From an uncultured Granulicella sp. (GTDB lineage Bacteria; Acidobacteriota; Terriglobia; Terriglobales; Acidobacteriaceae): a stretch of DNA of 64,000 nucleotides. Both the position numbers and the translations under genes were made by a program. Positions within the stretch are counted from its first letter, which is position 1. Each line of letters starts with the position of its first letter. The notes under the pieces are model-generated. The model was given only the letters and a program-made list of their open reading frames with translations. It made no database searches and was not told the DNA's origin. Below, one piece after another: positions 2,075 through 57,867 of the stretch. Where the stretch lies: contig CALMVK010000007.1 of assembly GCA_937873145.1 (NCBI GenBank), forward strand, positions 853 to 64,852, written 5' to 3'.

Positions 2075-3793
2075 ATGCTTCGGCATCGGGCGAACGAACG
2101 CATGGTTCCTCTACTGATTTTTCTTGCCTTGATGAACTTCGGTTTCGGGCTTGCCTGGTGGCGTGTGCGCGCCAGGACTCGTAAGCTGCGCAGCGAACTT
2201 ATAGAGGCCCGTCAGGCCAGTGAGTCGCGGGAGTCTCTGCTGTTGCAGCGGTCGCAGCTGGACAGCCTCAAAGACGAGTTCATCTCTACCGTTTCGCATG
2301 AGCTGCGCACGCCGCTGACCAGCATTCGGGGCGCCTTGGGATTACTCTCGGCCGGGCGGATGGGCAACGTGGATGCCAAGGCACAGAATCTGCTGCGCAT
2401 CGCCGTGAACAATACGGACCGGTTGATCCGGTTGATCAACGACATTCTGGATCTGGAACGCATGCAGTCAGGCCGGGTGTCGCTGCAAATTCGCCGCTGC
2501 TCTTTACGTGAGCTGGCGCAACAGGCGATGGAAACTATGACGCCGCTGGCCGACTCCGCCGAGGTGCGGATCGAGCTGATTCTGAGGGCGTTGCCGGAGG
2601 CGATGTTCTTCGACGGCGATCCAGACCGGATGCTGCAGGTGCTGACGAATCTGCTCTCGAACGCGATTAAATTTTCGCCTCCGGAGACACGGATTGAGGT
2701 GCGCGTAGAGGCTGATGCTACGTCGATCGTGCTGCGTATCTCCGATCAGGGCCGCGGCATTCCTCTAGGATCGCTCGACCAGGTCTTCGATCGCTTTCAA
2801 CAGGTTGAGCTGGCGGACGCTCGCCAGAAAGGCGGCACGGGATTGGGGCTGGCCATCTGCCGAGCGATCATTCAGCAGCACAACGGCGCGATCTGGGCGG
2901 AATCGAACGAGCATGAAGGGCGCGGCGCGGGCACATCTCTCATTTTTACCCTGCCGCGCGTCAGCCGTGTGGAGGACATGACGGCGGCGCTGCCGGTCAG
3001 CATGCTGCCTCCCGGCAAGGCAACCATCCTGATCTGCGACGACGATGCCAGCATTCGTGCGGTGGTAGCGGAGAGTCTGACCGCGCAAGGGTACAGGGTG
3101 CTTGAGGCTGAGGACGGACAGCAGGCGCTGGCGCTGGCCAGAACAAACGACGTTCAGGCCATTCTGCTCGATCTATATATGCCCGGACTGACGGGGTGGG
3201 AGACGTTGCAGCAGCTCAAGGGGTCGCCTAGCACGGCGGAGATCCCGGTCGTCATCCTGTCGGTGCTGCCCCCCTCGTCGAGCTCGCGGGACAGCACTGC
3301 GCTCAGCCCGGCGCCCGAGGGTTGGGTGCAGAAGCCGTTTCATGAGCGTCTGCTGCTGATGGAGCTCTCGCGGGTGCTGCATACAGGCGAGGGACCGGCG
3401 TACGTGCTGCTCGTCGAGGACGACGCCGATCTCGCACAAGTGATTGTCGCCAGTTTTGAAGAGGCCGAAGTGCGCGTAGATCATGCCCAGACTCGTCAGC
3501 GTGCGATTGAGCTGTGCCTGATTGCGCGGCCCAATTTACTGATTCTGGATCTTGGGCTGGCGGAGGGAGACGGATTTTCCCTGGTGGATTGGCTGCGGCA
3601 GCAACCGGATCTGCGCAGCCTGCCGCTGGTGGTCTTTTCAGGCCGAGAGGTCTCCGAGGAAGAGATGTCGAAGCTGCGGCTGGGGCCGACGCAGTTCCTG
3701 ACCAAGGCCAAGGTCGAGGCGCAGGATGTGGAGGCATTGGTGCTGAAGATCGTGCGGAAACTGCACGCGCCTGCGGCTTCGTCAGCAGGATAA
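2075..3793 (+). CDS. hybrid histidine kinase (one TM, HisKA, HATPase, two receiver domains)
   Basis: H-box VSHELRTPL, N-box NLLSNAIKF, G-box GGTGLGL, receivers ICDDD..LLDLYMP and VEDD..ILDLGL. Confidence 0.92.
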   Translation: MLRHRANERMVPLLIFLALMNFGFGLAWWRVRARTRKLRSELIEARQASESRESLLLQRSQLDSLKDEFISTVSHELRTPLTSIRGALGLLSAGRMGNVDAKAQNLLRIAVNNTDRLIRLINDILDLERMQSGRVSLQIRRCSLRELAQQAMETMTPLADSAEVRIELILRALPEAMFFDGDPDRMLQVLTNLLSNAIKFSPPETRIEVRVEADATSIVLRISDQGRGIPLGSLDQVFDRFQQVELADARQKGGTGLGLAICRAIIQQHNGAIWAESNEHEGRGAGTSLIFTLPRVSRVEDMTAALPVSMLPPGKATILICDDDASIRAVVAESLTAQGYRVLEAEDGQQALALARTNDVQAILLDLYMPGLTGWETLQQLKGSPSTAEIPVVILSVLPPSSSSRDSTALSPAPEGWVQKPFHERLLLMELSRVLHTGEGPAYVLLVEDDADLAQVIVASFEEAEVRVDHAQTRQRAIELCLIARPNLLILDLGLAEGDGFSLVDWLRQQPDLRSLPLVVFSGREVSEEEMSKLRLGPTQFLTKAKVEAQDVEALVLKIVRKLHAPAASSAG

Positions 3794-3855
3794 GCGTTCG
3801 CCTGTTGCACTTTCGGGGGATGGGCGCAAGCTGAAGGAGCGGGAGAAGATGGATC

Positions 3856-4230
3856 GTGCGAAGTGTTCTGATCATTGACGACGAAGACGACATACGGGAA
3901 GTAGCTGCATTGTCTCTTGAGGCAACCTCGGATTGGGTCATCCACACGGCGGGTTCCGGCAGGGAGGGCATTGCCACTGCCGCGGCGGAGCAGCCGGACG
4001 CAATCCTGATGGATGTGATGATGCCTGGTATGGATGGTCCTACGGCCTTCCGCCAGATGCAGGAGAATATCCGCGTGTCGCACATTCCTGTAGTGCTGCT
4101 GACGGCCAAGGTTCAGGGTGTGGATCAACGGCGGTTTGCGGGTTTGGGGGTTGCCGGCGTGTTGTTTAAACCGTTTGATCCGATTACGTTGGCTGCGCAG
4201 CTTTCTCAAGTGCTGGGCTGGAACGACTAG
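3856..4230 (+). CDS. single-domain response regulator
   Basis: IIDDEDD, LMDVMMP, LLTA, KPF receiver motifs; GTG start. Confidence 0.9.
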   Translation: MRSVLIIDDEDDIREVAALSLEATSDWVIHTAGSGREGIATAAAEQPDAILMDVMMPGMDGPTAFRQMQENIRVSHIPVVLLTAKVQGVDQRRFAGLGVAGVLFKPFDPITLAAQLSQVLGWND

Positions 4231-4348
4231 TTTGCGGTTTTCCAACAAAATTTGAAGCGCAGGATACGTCAGGTTCCCTTGAGAGGGGGGGTCTTGCGGC
4301 TTCGTGCATCCGACTACGGATCGCCTGCGTTCTTTATGCAGAATTAAC

Positions 4349-4375
4349 TAAAGTTTTTTCTCAGAATGCCGATAA
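4349..4375 (+). promoter_or_regulatory. sigma28 (FliA) promoter upstream of Hpt gene
   Basis: TAAA-GTTTTTTCTCAGAAT(15 nt)-GCCGATAA, perfect consensus and spacing. Confidence 0.8.
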
Positions 4376-4424
4376 GAAACTAGAGATTGGAATTGAATGC
4401 GGCCGCCGGAATTTCGGACCGGTT

Positions 4425-4844
4425 ATGAACATTTTTCTTGCAAATCTGGAAAACTTTACTACTCTGGTGGAACCCCACATGTCACCTCACACCGTTAGTC
4501 TCGCGCAAGCCGAAACGACGAAGAATCTTATTGCTGGCATTTGGCGGCGTAATCGAACTCAGGTGCTCGCCCGCTTGGAACTCCTGGAGTGCACTGCGAC
4601 TGCTGTGGCTGCGGAGAGCCTAACCCTTCCGCTGCTTGAAGAAGCACTCTCCACTTCACATAAGCTGGCCGGTTCGCTGGGTATGTTCGGGTTTGGGGAA
4701 GGTACGCAGTTGGCCCGTGTGCTTGAACAGCAGCTTGAGAGCGCATTGCCCAATGCCGGGGTGATGCTGGTCACGATCGCTCGTCTGCGCGAAGTTCTCT
4801 TCCCGGACTCCCTGGGCGTACCCAGCCTAGTTACAAGCCACTAA
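4425..4844 (+). CDS. stand-alone Hpt phosphotransfer protein
   Basis: SHKLAGSLGMFG Hpt motif; start could be the later ATG near 4479. Confidence 0.82.
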   Translation: MNIFLANLENFTTLVEPHMSPHTVSLAQAETTKNLIAGIWRRNRTQVLARLELLECTATAVAAESLTLPLLEEALSTSHKLAGSLGMFGFGEGTQLARVLEQQLESALPNAGVMLVTIARLREVLFPDSLGVPSLVTSH

Positions 4845-16433: not shown

Positions 16434-16460
16434 TAAAGTTTTGGCCAGGTTTGCCGATAT
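16434..16460 (+). promoter_or_regulatory. sigma28 (FliA) promoter upstream of PIG-L gene
   Basis: TAAA-GTTTTGGCCAGGTTT(15 nt)-GCCGATAT. Confidence 0.7.
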
Positions 16461-40287: not shown

Positions 40288-40659
40288 ATGGCAAAGGCAA
40301 CGGAGATAGGTGCGGCGAAGCTTTTCCGGTGGGCGGAGATGGAGCCTGAACAGATGAATCCGCTGCTGACGCGGCAGTTTTGCTCGGGCGAGCAGGCGAT
40401 GATTGGGCGCGTAATGCTGAAGAAGGGATGCGTGGTGCCGGAGCACAGCCATCCCAACGAGCAGCTGGCGTATATCGTCACGGGTGCGCTGGAGTTTGTG
40501 ATCGGCGGCGTGACGCAGGTGGTGCGGGCGGGCGAGGTGCTGGTGATCCCGGCGAACGTGCCGCATGCGGCCACGGCGCTGGAAGATACCGAGGACCTGG
40601 ATCTGTTTGCTCCGCCGCGGCAGGACTGGATCGACCAGAACGACAGCTATCTGCGCTAA
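40288..40659 (+). CDS. cupin domain protein
   Basis: VPEHSHPNEQ, IPANVPHAA, DLFAPPRQDW. Confidence 0.85.
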   Translation: MAKATEIGAAKLFRWAEMEPEQMNPLLTRQFCSGEQAMIGRVMLKKGCVVPEHSHPNEQLAYIVTGALEFVIGGVTQVVRAGEVLVIPANVPHAATALEDTEDLDLFAPPRQDWIDQNDSYLR

Positions 40660-40669
40660 GCGGTTGGCG

Positions 40670-40940
40670 AGACCATTTTACCTTCAGGTGTAGTTGCCGA
40701 ATCGCAGTCTGAGCCATGCTGTTGCCTCTTGAGCGGTAATGGTGTTGATTGCGTGTGCGGTGGCAGTTCGAGCTGCGGCATGGCTCTGGCGGCGAGGGCG
40801 CGCAGCCTGGCCTTGAGCTTGGACCAGGCTTTTTCGATCGGGTTGAGGTCGGGCGAATAGGGCGCGAGCCATCCCTCCATGCTCAACCTCAACTCAGAGC
40901 CTGCAAGAATCGAGGCCTGTACCCCACGGTAAATTGGTCT
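40670..40940 (-). mobile_element. internally deleted IS630-family element (MITE-like) with both terminal inverted repeats
   Basis: TIRs AGACCATTTTACC (40670-82) and rc AGACCAATTTACC (40928-40); frameshifted transposase tail PYSPDLNPIEKAWSKLK / ITAQEATAWLRLRFG. Confidence 0.82.
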
Positions 40941-41856
40941 AGCGCTTCTGCTTTCCAACCTTTGCAGCTGTGTTCGGCTTCTGCGACGACAGATCAGCCA
41001 TGGCCGCGCGGAGACGTAGCACGGCTGACGTATGAACTTGCGAAACACGGGACTCAACCACTCCAAGCGTCAGTCCGATCTCCTTCATCGTCAGCTCTTC
41101 GAAGTAGTAGAGAGTAAGCACCATTCTCTCCTTCTCTGGCAATTCTTCTATGGCTTCTGCGAGCCGCTGCTTCATCTCTCCCTTGAGACATCTAAAAAGG
41201 GGTTCGTCTTCCACTGAGGTAGGAATGTAAGCCAGTTCCTCATCACCAGAATCTTCCGAGCGCTCCAGGTGGAGTGTACCGATCTCCAAACCTTTAAGAT
41301 CACCCAGCAGCACCTGATACTCCGACAGAGAGACTTCGAGCTCCGTAGCAATCTCCTGCTCTACAGGTACCCGGCCTAGCCGCTTCGTCGTGCTCCGAAT
41401 CGCTTCTTCTACGGCCCGACCCTTGCGACGGAGCTCACGCGGACCCCAATCTACGCTTCGCAGGGAATCAAGGATTGCGCCACGGATGCGGAACTGCGCG
41501 TAGCTCTTGAACTGAACTTGTTTGGTGTAATCGAACTTGGCAAGCGCGTCGATCAAACCTACAATTCCTGCCGAAACGAGCTCTTCGAGCTCCACGTGCT
41601 GCGGAAGGCGTTCATGGATGTTTCTCGCAACGTAACGCACCGTCGGAAGATGCTCCATCAGCAATTGCTCGTGTTCTGCGGCAGTGAGTGCACTAGCAAC
41701 GGTCTCTGCTGGCTTGCGCCGCGACTGTTTGGCAGCAGAGAAACCAGAGACTGTCGGAAGCGCCGTTACTGCCTCTTCGAAAACCAGCCCGCACATGGCT
41801 GCATTCTGATCCTGCATCCCCAACATGGCTACCGGCAGTACGTTTCCCATTTCCAT
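40939..41856 (-). CDS. fliA: FliA/WhiG family sigma factor (sigma28)
   Basis: HERLPQHVELEELVSAG, YAQFRIRGAILDSLR, LTMKEIGLTLGVVESRVSQVH. Confidence 0.92.
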   Translation of the reverse strand: MEMGNVLPVAMLGMQDQNAAMCGLVFEEAVTALPTVSGFSAAKQSRRKPAETVASALTAAEHEQLLMEHLPTVRYVARNIHERLPQHVELEELVSAGIVGLIDALAKFDYTKQVQFKSYAQFRIRGAILDSLRSVDWGPRELRRKGRAVEEAIRSTTKRLGRVPVEQEIATELEVSLSEYQVLLGDLKGLEIGTLHLERSEDSGDEELAYIPTSVEDEPLFRCLKGEMKQRLAEAIEELPEKERMVLTLYYFEELTMKEIGLTLGVVESRVSQVHTSAVLRLRAAMADLSSQKPNTAAKVGKQKR

Positions 41857-41927
41857 TGCTTTTCTCCTCACAGGTGTGTCCTGTATGTGGTTTGCGCTTG
41901 ACCGCGCATCTGAACACTTAGGAGAAG

Positions 41928-41943
41928 AGCAAGCGAAGGGCCA
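41928..41943 (-). promoter_or_regulatory. sigma54 -24/-12 promoter of fliA
   Basis: TGGCCC-TTCGC-TTGCT (GG-N10-GC) ~70 nt before fliA, with an AT-rich tract upstream. Confidence 0.65.
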
Positions 41944-42251
41944 TGGTTTCGCTTTTTCTTCTTAATGTTTTCTTAGATGTTTCGCTTTTCAGCTTTGCCA
42001 TTCATACTCACCCGCAACTCCCATCGTGACGCACCAGCGATCAAGTGACACTAAGTCCCTTCATAGACTAGAAGACCGGCTCGCGGGAGCTTTCGGAGCA
42101 ACCGCCGCTTCCTCGCGCATCGTCAACTCAGTAAAGCTAATCGGGCCATCGATATTGAGTCGTCGGTCTATCCGGAGAGATTGCACCCATGTCAGAAAGC
42201 TCGCAGGGCCCAGTGCCGAGCGGCACCAGAGTCTAGAAACGGCCGCCGATT

Positions 42252-43448
42252 TTACCTCCGGCGCAGGACAATCTCTGCAGGCCCGATCTCCGGCCGATCC
42301 TCAGCCAGGATTGAACCTCGCTCGAGAACATGCATCAGCTCTCTGACATTTCCTGGCCACGAATAAGCAGTGAGAAGATCCAAGGCTGCAGAAGCTACCC
42401 TCTTTCTCGGCATCTGTTTTGCCAGCTCATCCAAGAAGAAGTCGACCAGGCTGGGCAGATCCTCAATTCGCTCGCGAAGAGCTGGTACAGTCAGCGGAAA
42501 CACTGCCAGACGGTGATACAGATCTAAGCGGAACGCTTTCTCTTCGGCCCGCTGCTCAAGCGGCTGGTGCGTGGCCGCGATAACTCGCACATCGACGCGA
42601 GCCGTTTCATTGTCCCCAACACGCTGAAGTTCGCCGCACTCCAGGAAGCGCAGCATTTTGGCCTGCAACGCCAGCGGCATCTCACCGATCTCGTCTAAGA
42701 ACAGAGTTCCACCATGAGCGGCCTCGATTCGACCTACGCGTGACTGAACAGCCCCTGTAAAAGCTCCTCGCGTGTGTCCGAAGAGCTCGGCTTCTAACAG
42801 AGACTCCGGGATAGCGGCGCAGTTCAGAACCACAAGGGGCTTCGTCGAGCGGGAACTCAATCGATGCAGCGCCTTCGCCACTACCTCTTTTCCAGTGCCA
42901 GTCTCGCCTTCAATTAAGACGCTCGTCGAGCGTGGCGCAACCAGGCGAATCATTCTCGATAGCTCGAGCATGGGAGCACTCTCGCCGATCATCTCCGGTA
43001 GACCGACGCGGACGGGTGTGGGAGCGAGCCGTGCAATGGAAGTTGAACCATGTCGCTGCGCCTTCGCTACCGTCGGTGCCATCTGCTGAGCTTCGCGCAG
43101 TGCATGCAGCAGCTCATGACGACGCGGACTCTTCGCCTGGCAACGAATGCGGTCTGCGTTGCCGTCCGCCGAGAGAACCTCCATCCCCGGGTACATCAGA
43201 CACATTTGCTGGGCGAACTCACCAGCCTCCAGGTCCGGAAGCCACTCGTCTAGAAGCAGCACCTCTGGCTGTTCGGCTTCCACCAAGGCCATGGCTTCCG
43301 CACCCCCGCCAGCTTCTCGCACTCTCCAACGAAGGGTAGTTAAGGCAGCGGTGACGCGATGTCTCAGAGCAAGATCGGCTCCTGCTATGACAGCGCTCCG
43401 TGTCGCCACAGAATCTTCATGGGTTGCCAAAGCGCTTGAAGTCTCCAT
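42252..43448 (-). CDS. sigma54 activator (receiver + AAA+) without C-terminal HTH
   Basis: LLDEWLPD, GETGTGKE, GAFTGA, LFLDEIG, WPGNVREL; ends about 20 aa later. Confidence 0.9.
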   Translation of the reverse strand: METSSALATHEDSVATRSAVIAGADLALRHRVTAALTTLRWRVREAGGGAEAMALVEAEQPEVLLLDEWLPDLEAGEFAQQMCLMYPGMEVLSADGNADRIRCQAKSPRRHELLHALREAQQMAPTVAKAQRHGSTSIARLAPTPVRVGLPEMIGESAPMLELSRMIRLVAPRSTSVLIEGETGTGKEVVAKALHRLSSRSTKPLVVLNCAAIPESLLEAELFGHTRGAFTGAVQSRVGRIEAAHGGTLFLDEIGEMPLALQAKMLRFLECGELQRVGDNETARVDVRVIAATHQPLEQRAEEKAFRLDLYHRLAVFPLTVPALRERIEDLPSLVDFFLDELAKQMPRKRVASAALDLLTAYSWPGNVRELMHVLERGSILAEDRPEIGPAEIVLRRR

Positions 43449-43460
43449 ATTTTCCTGCCA

Positions 43461-43709
43461 TCATCCGTCTTCGTCCAAATACTGCTGCATTGATCGAATG
43501 TGGACGATCATCCGCTCACACTGCTGCAATCCCTCCTCAACAGCGCGCCGCATCTCTACCTGCTCCCACACGCCGCCCGGAGTATGCTGCGCGGCCAGAA
43601 AGAGTCTGCACTGTAAAGCTGTTAGCGGCTGACTCAGATCGTGTAGGGCATCCTGCATCCAGTCTTGCAGGGTTTTGTCCGGCGTCGATTGCCCAAAAGT
43701 GCTATGCAT
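43461..43709 (-). CDS. stand-alone HisKA/DHp-like protein, 82 aa
   Basis: DALHDLSQPLTALQ H-box, helical, no ATPase domain; ATG overlaps upstream stop. Confidence 0.7.
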   Translation of the reverse strand: MHSTFGQSTPDKTLQDWMQDALHDLSQPLTALQCRLFLAAQHTPGGVWEQVEMRRAVEEGLQQCERMIVHIRSMQQYLDEDG

Positions 43710-44508
43710 AGGCACTCGTCTCGGCACGATCGCGCGCCTTTGCCAATCCATTCGCACCGGTTGCCTGCAGGTGAAGCGGGGCTGGCAGAAAACTCTGAAA
43801 GGACTCATGGGGATGGAGGGAGATTGCGTAGCCCTCTCCACGCACTGTTTCGATCACCCGGTCTGCTGGTTCAGACGAAACAGGCTTATTATCTATAACT
43901 TGCGCGAGCTTTTTCCGAAGATAGTTGATGTACACGTCCACCACGTTCGTTCCGGATGGAGGTGCCGACTGCCAGACCTCGCGGAGCAGTTCGCTGCGTC
44001 CACAAGGCCGGCCGCGCGCGAGGACAAGATATTCGAGCAGCGAAAACTCCTTGGACGTTAACTCGACGGCTCGGCCTTGCCGCTTCACGGTTCGCTGGAT
44101 ACGATCCATTTCGAGGTCACCGACACAAAGAGTCGAGGCAGCCGATTGATGACTTCGCCGAAGCAGCGCGCGGCAACGTGCCGTCAGTTCACTAAAGCTG
44201 AAAGGCTTAGGAAGACAATCGTCGGCACCTAGATTCAGGCAATGTACACGAGACTCCACGCCATTTCTTCCAGTCAGCACGAGCACAGAGGTTCCAGGAC
44301 ATTGTCCCTGCATGCGCTGCAGTATTTCAAGCCCATCCATTTCAGGTAAACCCAAATCCAAAACGAGCAGATCCGGTGCGTGTAACAACAAAGACGCCAG
44401 CCCCGTGCGGCCGTTACTCTCCAGCTCTACCTGATGCTTCTCTAAAGTCAGACCTTTCGCAATGAAATGTCCAAGAGCAAGGTCGTCCTCAAGAATCAGT
44501 ATGCGCAT
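43702..44508 (-). CDS. OmpR-family response regulator
   Basis: ILEDD, LVLDLGLP, GADDCLPKPF, LTSKEFSLL, NVVDVYINYLRKK, TVRGEGY. Confidence 0.92.
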   Translation of the reverse strand: MRILILEDDLALGHFIAKGLTLEKHQVELESNGRTGLASLLLHAPDLLVLDLGLPEMDGLEILQRMQGQCPGTSVLVLTGRNGVESRVHCLNLGADDCLPKPFSFSELTARCRALLRRSHQSAASTLCVGDLEMDRIQRTVKRQGRAVELTSKEFSLLEYLVLARGRPCGRSELLREVWQSAPPSGTNVVDVYINYLRKKLAQVIDNKPVSSEPADRVIETVRGEGYAISLHPHESFQSFLPAPLHLQATGANGLAKARDRAETSAYA

Positions 44509-44733
44509 GCTTTCCTCCATCAGTCCAACAGTTCGGGGTAATGACGGTCCGCGTTTTTGCTGTCAACGTGGCCTGTCATAACCATCAGGCTTCCAAACCT
44601 GCGGAACAAGCAGAAACGTCTCACTTTCCTCATAGCCATTCCAAAATGGAACCAACCGAGCCGAAACGACTCGCTTCTAGCTGTTTCTTCTCCAACTTCT
44701 GTGGGAGAAGGTGCAAAAAGCCCGAACTTTTTC

Positions 44734-44761
44734 TTGCTTTTCGCTTTCTATTCGCTACAAT
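44734..44761 (+). promoter_or_regulatory. lexA promoter with candidate LexA direct-repeat operator
   Basis: TTGCTT-N16-TACAAT-N6-ATG; TTCGC at 44740 and 44751 (11 bp period) in the spacer. Confidence 0.55.
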
Positions 44762-44767
44762 TGCCGC

Positions 44768-45373
44768 ATGGCCATCACACGTCGGCAAAAAGAAGTGATT
44801 GACTTCCTCTCCAGCTTCACGCAGAAGAACGGATACTCCCCTTCCTATGAGGAAATTGCCTCGGGCCTGGGACTGGCTTCACTGGCGACGGTGCATAAAC
44901 ACATCACCAATCTTCAGAACAAAGGTCTGCTGCAGCGCGCGCACAATCGCAGCCGGTCGATTGACGTTCTACCTGCACGTACCTCGAAGAAGGGTGCCGA
45001 TCGGCTCCCACTGCTGGGCCGTATCGCTGCAGGCCGTCCAGTCGAGGCCATCGAATCTGCTGAATCCATCTCCCTGGGAGATATTATCGGGAACCGAGAG
45101 GTGTTCGCATTGGAAGTTCGGGGGGATTCCATGCGAGACGAACACATTGTTTCTGGAGATTATGTGCTCGTAGAGCGGACGCGGACAGCCCGCGAAGGAG
45201 AGATTATCGTCGCGCTGATCGACGGATCGGATGCAACTCTGAAGCGGTTTTATCGTGAAGGCGCAATGATTCGCCTTCAACCTTCGAATGCCACCATGGA
45301 CCCCATCTATGCGCCGGCGGCGAGTGTCACCATTCAGGGCAAGGTTCTCGGGATGCTACGAAAATATGCATAA
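44768..45373 (+). CDS. lexA: SOS repressor LexA
   Basis: PSYEEIA HTH, IAAG cleavage site, GDSM Ser, TLKR Lys. Confidence 0.96.
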   Translation: MAITRRQKEVIDFLSSFTQKNGYSPSYEEIASGLGLASLATVHKHITNLQNKGLLQRAHNRSRSIDVLPARTSKKGADRLPLLGRIAAGRPVEAIESAESISLGDIIGNREVFALEVRGDSMRDEHIVSGDYVLVERTRTAREGEIIVALIDGSDATLKRFYREGAMIRLQPSNATMDPIYAPAASVTIQGKVLGMLRKYA

Positions 45374-57528: not shown

Positions 57529-57804
57529 TTACTTCGACTCCGTCCGAATTTCCCCCGAGGCAGATTTGACAGGGTTCTGAATCATTCGCTCAACCACCTT
57601 CTCTGCAACTGCCGCCGACGGGACATGATAGGTGCCCGATCGTATGGCGTGCTGCAGCAGCGCAATGCGGGCTAATCTTGCGTGGATGTCTGGAGTTGCA
57701 CGGCTGCCGAGGCTGGAATCGGTGGCGCAGACTTGATCCGGGTCGATCGCGCCCCATACTCCTGGAATCATCTGACGCGAACTCTTGCCGTCTTTTGCTG
57801 ACAT
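57529..57804 (-). CDS. flgM: anti-sigma28 factor FlgM-like
   Basis: C-terminal RIALLQHAIRSGTYHVPSAAVAEKVV matches the FlgM motif; preceded by a sigma28 promoter. Confidence 0.75.
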   Translation of the reverse strand: MSAKDGKSSRQMIPGVWGAIDPDQVCATDSSLGSRATPDIHARLARIALLQHAIRSGTYHVPSAAVAEKVVERMIQNPVKSASGEIRTESK

Positions 57805-57840
57805 GGATGAAACTCCTAGGCAAGCAGTGCCTATAGAGGA

Positions 57841-57867
57841 GTATCGGCTGACATTTGAAAAACTTTA
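57841..57867 (-). promoter_or_regulatory. sigma28 promoter of flgM
   Basis: TAAA-GTTTTTCAAATGTCA(15 nt)-GCCGATAC. Confidence 0.8.

Follow-up and report, generated by a model that had tools for sequence, protein, structure and literature searches.

What are flagellar regulators doing at a locus that has no flagellar structural genes? The question is raised by four genes in a 64,000-nt stretch of DNA from an uncultured Granulicella sp. (contig CALMVK010000007.1 of assembly GCA_937873145.1), here called the window. All four open reading frames (ORFs) are on the minus strand, within 40939-44520, and they encode an OmpR-type response regulator, a protein of 82 aa with a histidine box (H-box), a sigma-54 activator that has no helix-turn-helix (HTH) domain, and the flagellar sigma factor FliA (sigma-28). 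We consider it probable, with real room for doubt, that this cassette is the regulatory remnant, both head and tail, of a lexA-linked flagellar cluster of the Acidobacteriaceae, from which about 16 kb running from flgB to flhA has been lost. The features on which the argument depends are as follows.

43702 to 44508, minus strand: OmpR/PhoB-family response regulator, 268 aa from its probable start (Pfam domains, alignment with CheY).
43461 to 43709, minus strand: 82-aa putative minimal dimerisation and histidine phosphotransfer (DHp) protein, here mini-DHp, a helical hairpin with an H-box; 8-nt overlap with the OmpR stop.
42252 to 43448, minus strand: sigma-54 activator, 398 aa, starting 12 nt past the mini-DHp stop (Pfam and NCBIfam).
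41944 to 41986, minus strand: tandem array of four 11-bp units abutting the -24 element, a candidate site for the OmpR-type regulator.
41928 to 41943, minus strand: predicted sigma-54 type -24/-12 promoter, TGGCCC-TTCGC-TTGCT (spacing and conservation).
41857 to 41927, minus strand: conserved fliA leader that contains a pair of short hairpins, GCGC..GCGC and CAGG..CCTG, and the ribosome-binding site GAGGAG (alignment).
40939 to 41856, minus strand: FliA (sigma-28), 305 aa (TIGR02479); the ORF is open to 41871.
44711 to 45373, plus strand: lexA (Pfam), the divergent neighbour of the module, conserved across the family by synteny.

A first-pass annotation of this DNA had described the genes, the 8-nt overlap and 12-nt gap that pack the first three together, and a -24/-12 motif upstream of fliA. 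All of these are present in the sequence, and it was also right that neither a sensor kinase nor a flagellar structural gene is adjacent at the locus.

The OmpR-type ORF (43702-44520) is 272 aa long from its outermost ATG, but the probable start is at 44508, behind GGAGGA, in agreement with the orthologues in relatives, which are 267-268 aa long. The protein scores 79 bits for Response_reg and 76.8 bits for Trans_reg_C in Pfam, reaches none of the NCBIfam equivalog cut-offs, and ends in a C-terminal tail of about 35 aa. Its receiver is canonical, the EDD, Asp, Thr and Lys-Pro positions all aligning with those of CheY.

The AAA+ core of the activator is complete (Pfam Sigma54_activat, 228 bits), with GAFTGA, GETGTGKE and LFLDEIGE motifs and an AAA lid following. 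No Pfam match to HTH_8 was found, and the protein, like its orthologues (392-402 aa), ends 9 residues past the lid. The match of the N-terminal domain to receivers is weak (Pfam E=3e-4 over residues 27-92; 21.3 bits against a cut-off of 30.2): it aligns through beta-4 only and is then truncated, although the equivalent of Asp57 is kept in all orthologues. We interpret the domain, from this alignment, as a pseudo-receiver or a receiver of atypical kind. The NCBIfam models for FlgR and FlbD score 212 and 253.6 bits, against a cut-off of 750 for each.

FliA follows after a spacer of 380 nt. Its ORF spans 40939-41871, and the conserved, real start is the ATG at 41856 behind GAGGAG, the same as in relatives. 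The protein scores 238 bits on TIGR02479 (cut-off 189.6); in Pfam, sigma-70 regions 2 and 4 are above their cut-offs (51.8 and 57.0 bits) and region 3 is just under (21.7 against 25.3). An N-terminal extension of about 65 aa is common to the orthologues, and identity to the 80 closest of these in the Acidobacteriaceae is 64-87%.

The strongest clue to the origin of the cassette is its synteny. Every close relative of the activator or of FliA belongs to the Acidobacteriaceae (Granulicella, Edaphobacter, Tunturiibacter, Terracidiphilus and metagenome-assembled genomes (MAGs)). In a genome of the same genus, G058, the order is lexA (divergent), the OmpR-type gene, an ORF of about 80 aa with an H-box, the activator gene, a terminator, and then flgB-flgC-fliE-fliF-fliG-fliH...flhA and fliA, the last lying 17 kb downstream and overlapping the flhA stop. 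The window proteins are 60% (OmpR), 38% (DHp), 65% (activator), 65% (FliA, over the full length including the N-terminal extension) and 90% (LexA) identical to those of G058. The usual order in the family is thus lexA OmpR-(DHp)-activator-flgB...flhA-fliA, and in more than 17 relatives the lexA-OmpR-(DHp)-activator set heads flgB-flgC-fliE-fliF-fliG. The loci with this ancestral order are G058, L051-L056, L058, L059, L130-L132, L134, L135, L138, L139 and L222. Among the closest FliA orthologues of species representatives, flhA is directly upstream in 75 of 80, and these flhA genes are of the G058 type, with products 75-93% identical to G058 FlhA; L182 is one more of the 80 loci with flhA directly upstream, beyond the 75.

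LexA-OmpR-DHp-activator-FliA, the order seen in the window, is found only in the three closest of the 80 FliA-orthologue loci, and the longer order UvrB-PGM-HAD-LexA, OmpR-DHp-activator-FliA in L046 (a 4.0-Mb contig), L047/L140, L048, L049, L141 and L142. The four-gene order is intact, with constant gene lengths, in at least six independent sequences. Looser versions also occur: L050 has OmpR-DHp-activator-FliA, L060 has the same with a longer form of the DHp protein, and two genomes of other genera, G005 and G079, have OmpR-activator-FliA with no DHp.

A synteny survey, as the first-pass annotation had recommended, therefore ties the cassette to flagellar genes, through the adjacency of flhA and fliA and also through co-occurrence. 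Within a family sample of 101 genomes, 45 have flhA. A strong match to the N-terminal domain of the window-type activator (E < 1e-15) is found in 25 genomes, 21 of which have flhA; of the four that do not, two are only 68-70% complete.

The genome that contains the window (G000; 344 contigs, 90.85% complete) has rpoN, one flhA and a flagellin gene. Its only structural cluster is on a different contig, C221, in the order motA-motB, OmpR-type gene, HTH-less activator, PAS histidine kinase, NtrC-type activator (HTH_8, 48.5 bits), flgB-flgC-fliE-fliF-fliG...flhA and a second FliA. The HTH-less activator and FliA of C221 are 45% and 44% identical to those in the window. Compared with G058 and with every other lexA-linked cluster examined, the C221 proteins are 38-61% identical, and FlhA 61-63%, while in composition C221 is like the rest of its genome (GC 0.609, tetranucleotide r = 0.995). 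An activator of the C221 type is also present in G005, on the contig of flhA and about 20 kb away from that gene, which means that G005 at least shares the overall architecture of the window genome; G079 probably has one, on a contig other than that of flhA.

The simplest reading of these gene orders is that flgB to flhA were lost from the lexA-linked cluster in the clade of the window, and that C221 is a second, divergent system. Such a loss would leave fliA abutting the activator gene. The flagellar link claimed for the cassette in the first-pass annotation is thus supported by synteny, but the absence of structural genes would be no design feature and would instead be the result of this loss.

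The region in front of fliA provides further evidence. The sequence TGGCCCTTCGCTTGCT at 41943-41928 (minus strand) has the correct GG-N10-GC spacing. When seven sequences were aligned, a block of about 90 nt, from GCGAAA through the -24/-12 element to CTAAGTG, was nearly invariant, and the distal spacer could not be aligned. Synonymous sites in the adjacent DHp gene are saturated (dS 0.45-1.7) while the promoter block stays close to invariant. The element is thus supported, by phylogenetic footprinting, as a predicted sigma-54 promoter. The same TGGCCC form of -24, correctly spaced, is present upstream of two operons of the C221 flagellar cluster, and a motA-like gene beside flagellin has a TGGCAT variant.

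Abutting the -24 element is a 44-bp array of four 11-bp units, AGCGAAAcatc TAAGAAAacat TAAGAAGaaaa AGCGAAAccat, each with GAAR followed by four bases. It is nearly invariant in the seven sequences, and the whole genome (4.18 Mb) contains just two arrays of four NNNGAAR-N4 units. Sites of the PhoB/OmpR family have a 7+4 geometry, as these units do, and we regard the array at 41944-41986 as a candidate binding array of the adjacent OmpR-type regulator. A palindrome, AAGCGAA-N10-TTCGCTT, spans the -24 element. No sigma-70-like promoter is predicted on this strand in the spacer between activator and fliA.

At loci of the ancestral type, a sigma-54-like promoter is found right after the activator gene and before flgB (TGGCGACAGGCTTGCA in L222, TGGCACTGCGGCTGCT in L051, and also in L053 and G058), so that fliA in the window clade occupies the former place of flgB. 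The fliA promoter block itself has no match in class I loci or elsewhere in the genome. A 10/11 match to the G058 flgB promoter at about 42030 in the window (TGGTGCGTCAC) was dropped as a candidate, because by our own estimate about 0.5 such matches are expected by chance.

From the gene identities, the synteny and the conservation we infer the following history and scheme of control. The ancestral cluster would have had the OmpR-type gene, in some lineages the mini-DHp gene, and the HTH-less activator gene at its head, with a sigma-54 promoter and flgB directly after them; at its tail fliA would have overlapped the flhA stop, and the loss of about 16 kb would have placed fliA behind the activator. 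The four genes that remained would have been kept under selection, while the flagellum itself would be built from the C221 cluster. The activator may contact sigma-54 holoenzyme from solution, as FlgR of Helicobacter pylori does, and open the -24/-12 promoter of fliA. The phosphorylated OmpR-type regulator would bind the GAAR array and gate this promoter. The mini-DHp, which would be made in step with OmpR by coupled translation, is proposed to act through its invariant His on the OmpR receiver; it may either relay phosphate to this receiver from an unlinked kinase, in the manner of ChpT and Spo0B, or take phosphate off. FliA in turn would read many promoters of the form TAAAGTTTT-N..-GCCGATAA, among them those of flgM, a methyl-accepting chemotaxis protein (MCP) gene and a histidine phosphotransfer (Hpt) gene, with a near-match at the flagellin gene.

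The least familiar member of this scheme is the mini-DHp. Its H-box reads LHDLSQPLTAL, and the Pfam model HisKA scores 18.8 bits (E=1.7e-3), below the gathering cut-off of 26.9. A word-index search found 14 homologues, all of 77-94 aa and 56-82% identical, in which the pattern L-H-x-L-x-Q-P-L-T-x-L is invariant; His23, Leu25, Gln27, Pro28, Thr30 and Leu32 stay invariant with the distant copies in G058, G055, G092 and G050 added. With dN/dS at 0.10-0.30 across the range of dS given above, codon comparison indicates that purifying selection acts on the gene. An AlphaFold (AF2) model has a two-helix hairpin (helices 14-41 and 47-81, pLDDT 75), for which Foldseek gave its best TM-scores, 0.68-0.72, with the DHp domains of HK853 and SrrB, at non-significant E-values; a sequence search of the PDB gave weak matches to kinases (E 0.1-0.4). 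The model is consistent with a DHp fold, short of proof.

The family to which it belongs is large, and its proteins are typically 70-110 aa long. A profile search of 1.84 billion representatives returned 287 clusters (at 50% identity) with E <= 1e-3. Almost all of the best 150 of these are 47-146 aa long, and ordinary kinases are absent from those 150. Of five family members that were sampled, three are on contigs long enough to show gene context, the other two contigs being only about 1 kb. All three lie directly upstream of a sigma-54 activator gene; two of them also follow an OmpR-type gene, and one, L222, is a complete lexA-linked flagellar cluster. Long forms of 222-252 aa, in G050, L060 and P0089, have the same position and the same H-box, and an extra C-terminal domain that resembles the catalytic and ATP-binding (CA) domain, with kinase-like helices but neither a HATPase match nor any of the N, G1 and G2 boxes. 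The long form of G050 scores 26.8 bits for HisKA, against the cut-off of 26.9. The two-domain layout of Spo0B and ChpT is thus seen only in the long homologues; the 82-aa protein in the window has no second domain. Judged by these sequence matches, the mini-DHps are a sizeable, widespread, unannotated and so far undescribed family, and a literature search on free-standing DHp proteins found nothing relevant.

The function may be of either kind. The phosphatase motif of HisKA proteins is E/D-x-x-T/N, and the mini-DHp has H-D-x-x-Q at this position, with Gln in place of Thr/Asn. A phosphate shuttle to the OmpR-type regulator and a dedicated phosphatase of that regulator seem about equally likely.

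Four observations on the family can be added here. Cys is common at HDLCQPLT, L-x-C-R-L and x-C-x-R-M, in both helices of the hairpin (Cys34 and Cys64 in the window protein), and a redox or metal site at these positions is conceivable from the sequences. In two very long proteins the mini-DHp profile is matched repeatedly, 28 times along P0018 (2608 aa) and 5 times along P0082 (2487 aa), each time in a separate stretch, so that the His-box hairpin is found as a tandem repeat as well. At L185, a MAG locus (DATCBR010000400.1, 3496-3669), fliA is directly preceded by a DHp-like ORF with 47% identity, and no flhA or activator gene separates the two; this is a further rearranged variant. G055 (L028, L045; 99% complete) keeps lexA-OmpR-DHp-activator-flgB and has no detectable flhA and no FliA above the cut-off, so that its cluster is possibly decaying.

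At the other end of the scheme are the promoters that FliA would read. Exact matches to TAAA-N14-16-GCCGATA in the window number three, against 0.03 expected, and they share its 64 kb with the cassette and with flgM.

4349 to 4374, plus strand: sigma-28 site, exact match.
16434 to 16459, plus strand: sigma-28 site, exact match.
57842 to 57867, minus strand: sigma-28 site, exact match.
57529 to 57867, minus strand: flgM (anti-sigma-28; gene at 57529-57804) with its promoter, TAAAGTTTT-N10-GCCGATA, extending to 57867.

The three sites precede an Hpt gene, a 943-aa ORF and flgM, whose product scores 28.2 bits for FlgM, against 25. Across the genome, TAAAG-N13-15-GCCGATA occurs at 34 sites, and the reversed control at none; the same site is found 0-3 times in the genomes of nine relatives, and four times in about 2 Mb of relatives' loci. 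The 34 sites have the consensus CTAAAGTTTT-N9-TGCCGATAA and nothing else in common. A mobile repeat was considered as their source and rejected, there being no extended similarity among them. Sigma-28-type promoters are present at flgM and at an MCP gene, and the flagellin gene has a perfect GCCGATAA as its -10 element, with a weaker -35. Many of the genes behind the sites are not flagellar, and include those for Lon, a ClpC-like protein, TopA, FtsW, AceE and a Ser/Thr kinase, although the assignment of ORFs downstream of the sites is crude.

Within 2075-4844 of the window a two-receiver hybrid histidine kinase is encoded, and further downstream lies the separate Hpt gene with its own sigma-28 promoter. 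These two proteins are a possible upstream phosphodonor for the cassette.

Several of these results, and some others, weigh against the reading of the cassette as a selected regulatory remnant that acts on the flagellum in the way proposed. C221 has a full regulator set of its own, from which it follows that the window cassette may have some other target than the flagellum. Either of the two FliA paralogues may be the one that reads the sigma-28 promoters. The DHp gene is missing from many loci that have the same OmpR-activator pair, and none was found to separate the OmpR-type gene from the activator gene in G005, in G079 or on C221; the DHp is therefore an accessory part, dispensable for the module. 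In the receiver alignment of the activator, nothing matches Asp12/13, Thr87 or Lys109. The bare motif TGGC-N7-TTGCW is not enriched, with 114 copies in the genome against 79-106 at wrong spacings; at this near-chance level, it is the conservation of the promoter block that is the real evidence for the -24/-12 element. In the spacer between activator and fliA no terminator is predicted on this strand, so that read-through from the activator gene is possible. Lastly, no sequence homology was found between the fliA promoter block and the flgB promoters, so that the fliA promoter may be new rather than inherited.

A bolder proposal can be built on the same results, and we put it forward only tentatively, thinking it rather less likely to be right than wrong. 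It has two parts: that the His-box proteins of about 80 aa are a new class of two-component part, a minimal DHp that stands alone, serves an OmpR-type regulator as phosphate shuttle or phosphatase, and perhaps also docks onto the pseudo-receiver of the activator; and that in the window clade the regulators of a lost flagellar system were kept and have been rewired, from sigma-54 to FliA, to an enlarged sigma-28 regulon that goes beyond motility.

Two other explanations are unlikely, and they seem so to about the same degree. According to one, which the first-pass annotation had put forward, a kinase encoded elsewhere passes phosphate to the free DHp, the DHp to both the OmpR-type regulator and the activator, and these switch on fliA and the flagellum, the whole acting as a master switch. 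The DHp gene does lie between two receiver-bearing genes, closely packed with both of them, its His is invariant, its long forms resemble ChpT, which serves two receivers, and a two-receiver hybrid kinase and an Hpt gene are found in the same window. However, of the receiver positions considered the activator keeps only the Asp57 equivalent, and with so degenerate a receiver a transfer of phosphate from the DHp to both regulators is doubtful. The OmpR-activator pair also occurs with no DHp in many relatives that are flagellated. The name of master regulator is also not borne out, because the C221 structural cluster has a parallel set of its own in the OmpR-type regulator, HTH-less activator, PAS kinase, NtrC-type activator and FliA. 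A class I master regulator of the FleQ/FlrA, FlhDC or CtrA type stands at the top of the hierarchy and is needed for the expression of every flagellar gene; what the cassette shows in this respect is its position at the head of the ancestral cluster.

The other improbable explanation starts from the sigma-28 sites, and proposes that the cassette was co-opted once its structural genes had gone, the sigma-54-to-FliA arm being kept because its FliA drives an enlarged sigma-28 regulon that includes protease, cell-envelope and signalling genes, for a programme that is non-flagellar or at least broader than the flagellum. The number of sites compared with that in the nine relatives, their independence from one another, the non-flagellar genes that many of them precede, and the survival of an intact cassette with no adjacent structural genes in several genera would all fit. 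Against this, there is no expansion of sites in L050 or L060, which have the activator-fliA order, nor in G058, which has a closely related FliA; flgM, MCP and flagellin genes carry sigma-28-type promoters too; and the crude ORF assignment applies here as well. That the four genes are a decaying and functionless relic of a lost flagellar system is very improbable: the structural genes are gone, an insertion sequence (IS) fragment and a synteny break lie beside fliA, G055 keeps its OmpR-DHp-activator-flgB set with neither flhA nor fliA detectable, and the activator of G092 is broken, but the four ORFs are intact and constant in length in their independent sequences, the dN/dS of the DHp gene is low (0.1-0.3), and the promoter block, though non-coding, has changed far less than synonymous sites.

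The remnant of a lexA-linked cluster can be compared part by part with known systems. FlgR of H. pylori has no HTH and activates sigma-54 promoters in an enhancer-independent manner (PMC9696931). The window activator resembles the FlgS/FlgR system, and likewise CtcB/CtcC of Chlamydia, in being a receiver-AAA+ activator with no C-terminal HTH, and it shares the link to flagellar genes. It differs from FlgS/FlgR in that its receiver is degenerate and truncated, there is no adjacent cognate kinase, and an OmpR-type regulator and a mini-DHp are encoded with it. Caulobacter FlbD is a sigma-54 flagellar activator whose receiver lacks conserved residues of the phospho-pocket. The receiver in the window is atypical in a similar way, and the analogy would favour a protein contact, not a kinase, as the means of control. 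In contrast to FlbD, which has an HTH and binds enhancers, the window activator has no HTH, and at its score below the NCBIfam cut-off it is not a member of that family.

The mini-DHp recalls the CckA-ChpT-CtrA/CpdR and Spo0F-Spo0B-Spo0A relays, in which a DHp protein that is not a kinase is grouped with a regulator of the OmpR family and with another protein that has a receiver; CtrA, in the ChpT relay, is of the OmpR family and controls flagellar genes. The layout of ChpT and Spo0B, a DHp followed by a CA-like domain with no N, G1 or G2 boxes, is that of the long forms in G050, L060 and P0089. The window protein, unlike ChpT and Spo0B, is a DHp hairpin alone, with no alpha/beta domain and no membership by sequence, and its phosphotransfer is putative. 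Zhu et al. in 2000 reportedly found that the DHp of EnvZ, without the ATP-binding domain, still dephosphorylates OmpR~P. By analogy a similar activity is putative for the mini-DHp, given H-D-x-x-Q at the phosphatase-motif position; the EnvZ DHp, however, is an engineered fragment, while the mini-DHp is a natural free-standing gene and has Gln for Thr/Asn.

In Vibrio, fliA is a class II gene and sigma-54-dependent, so that sigma-54 stands above sigma-28 (PMC6504787). A fliA driven by sigma-54, as proposed in the first-pass annotation, is thus already known and no novelty; in the window it is supported as a predicted, footprinted promoter. The window would share with the FlrA system of Vibrio the order of sigma-54 above sigma-28; there, however, FlrA binds DNA and fliA is within flhA-flhF-flhG-fliA, whereas the window fliA has its own promoter beside the gene of an HTH-less activator. 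Each element has known counterparts, and the novelty is in their combination, in its history and in the unannotated mini-DHp family.

In the library of papers searched, there was none on flagellar regulation in Acidobacteriota. The locus and its relatives suggest a testable scheme for such control, with an OmpR-type regulator and an HTH-less activator at the head, sigma-54 promoters, and FliA at the tail. No natural histidine-box partner of a response regulator would be smaller than the mini-DHps. The survival of regulators and fliA beyond the structural genes, beside a second cluster, would be a clean case of the re-use of a regulatory module after loss of its target.

Some minor observations concern the C221 activator and the end of the cassette. 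In the activator at C221:40728-41885, homology to that of the window sets in at 40728, but there is no ATG, GTG or TTG start before 40842; this implies either a non-standard start, a truncated N-domain or a fault in the assembly. In its receiver, the Asp of the window type is replaced by Asn. Just 3' of fliA there is one further feature.

40797 to 40871, minus strand: IS630-type transposase fragment (Pfam DDE_3, 29.1 bits over 25 residues).

This is the core of an IS630-type DDE transposase fragment that spans 40656-41066 on the minus strand. Contamination or a chimera, as the origin of the break at 40.7 kb or of the second cluster, was considered and rejected, since composition is typical both in C221 and in the two halves of the window's contig (C7). 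Near 40-42 kb there is a turn in the cumulative GC skew and a fall in G+C content, from about 0.64-0.68 to 0.54-0.58. Synteny with relatives breaks at the fragment, the genes that relatives have there being those for a peptidoglycan-binding protein, HtrA and a racemase.

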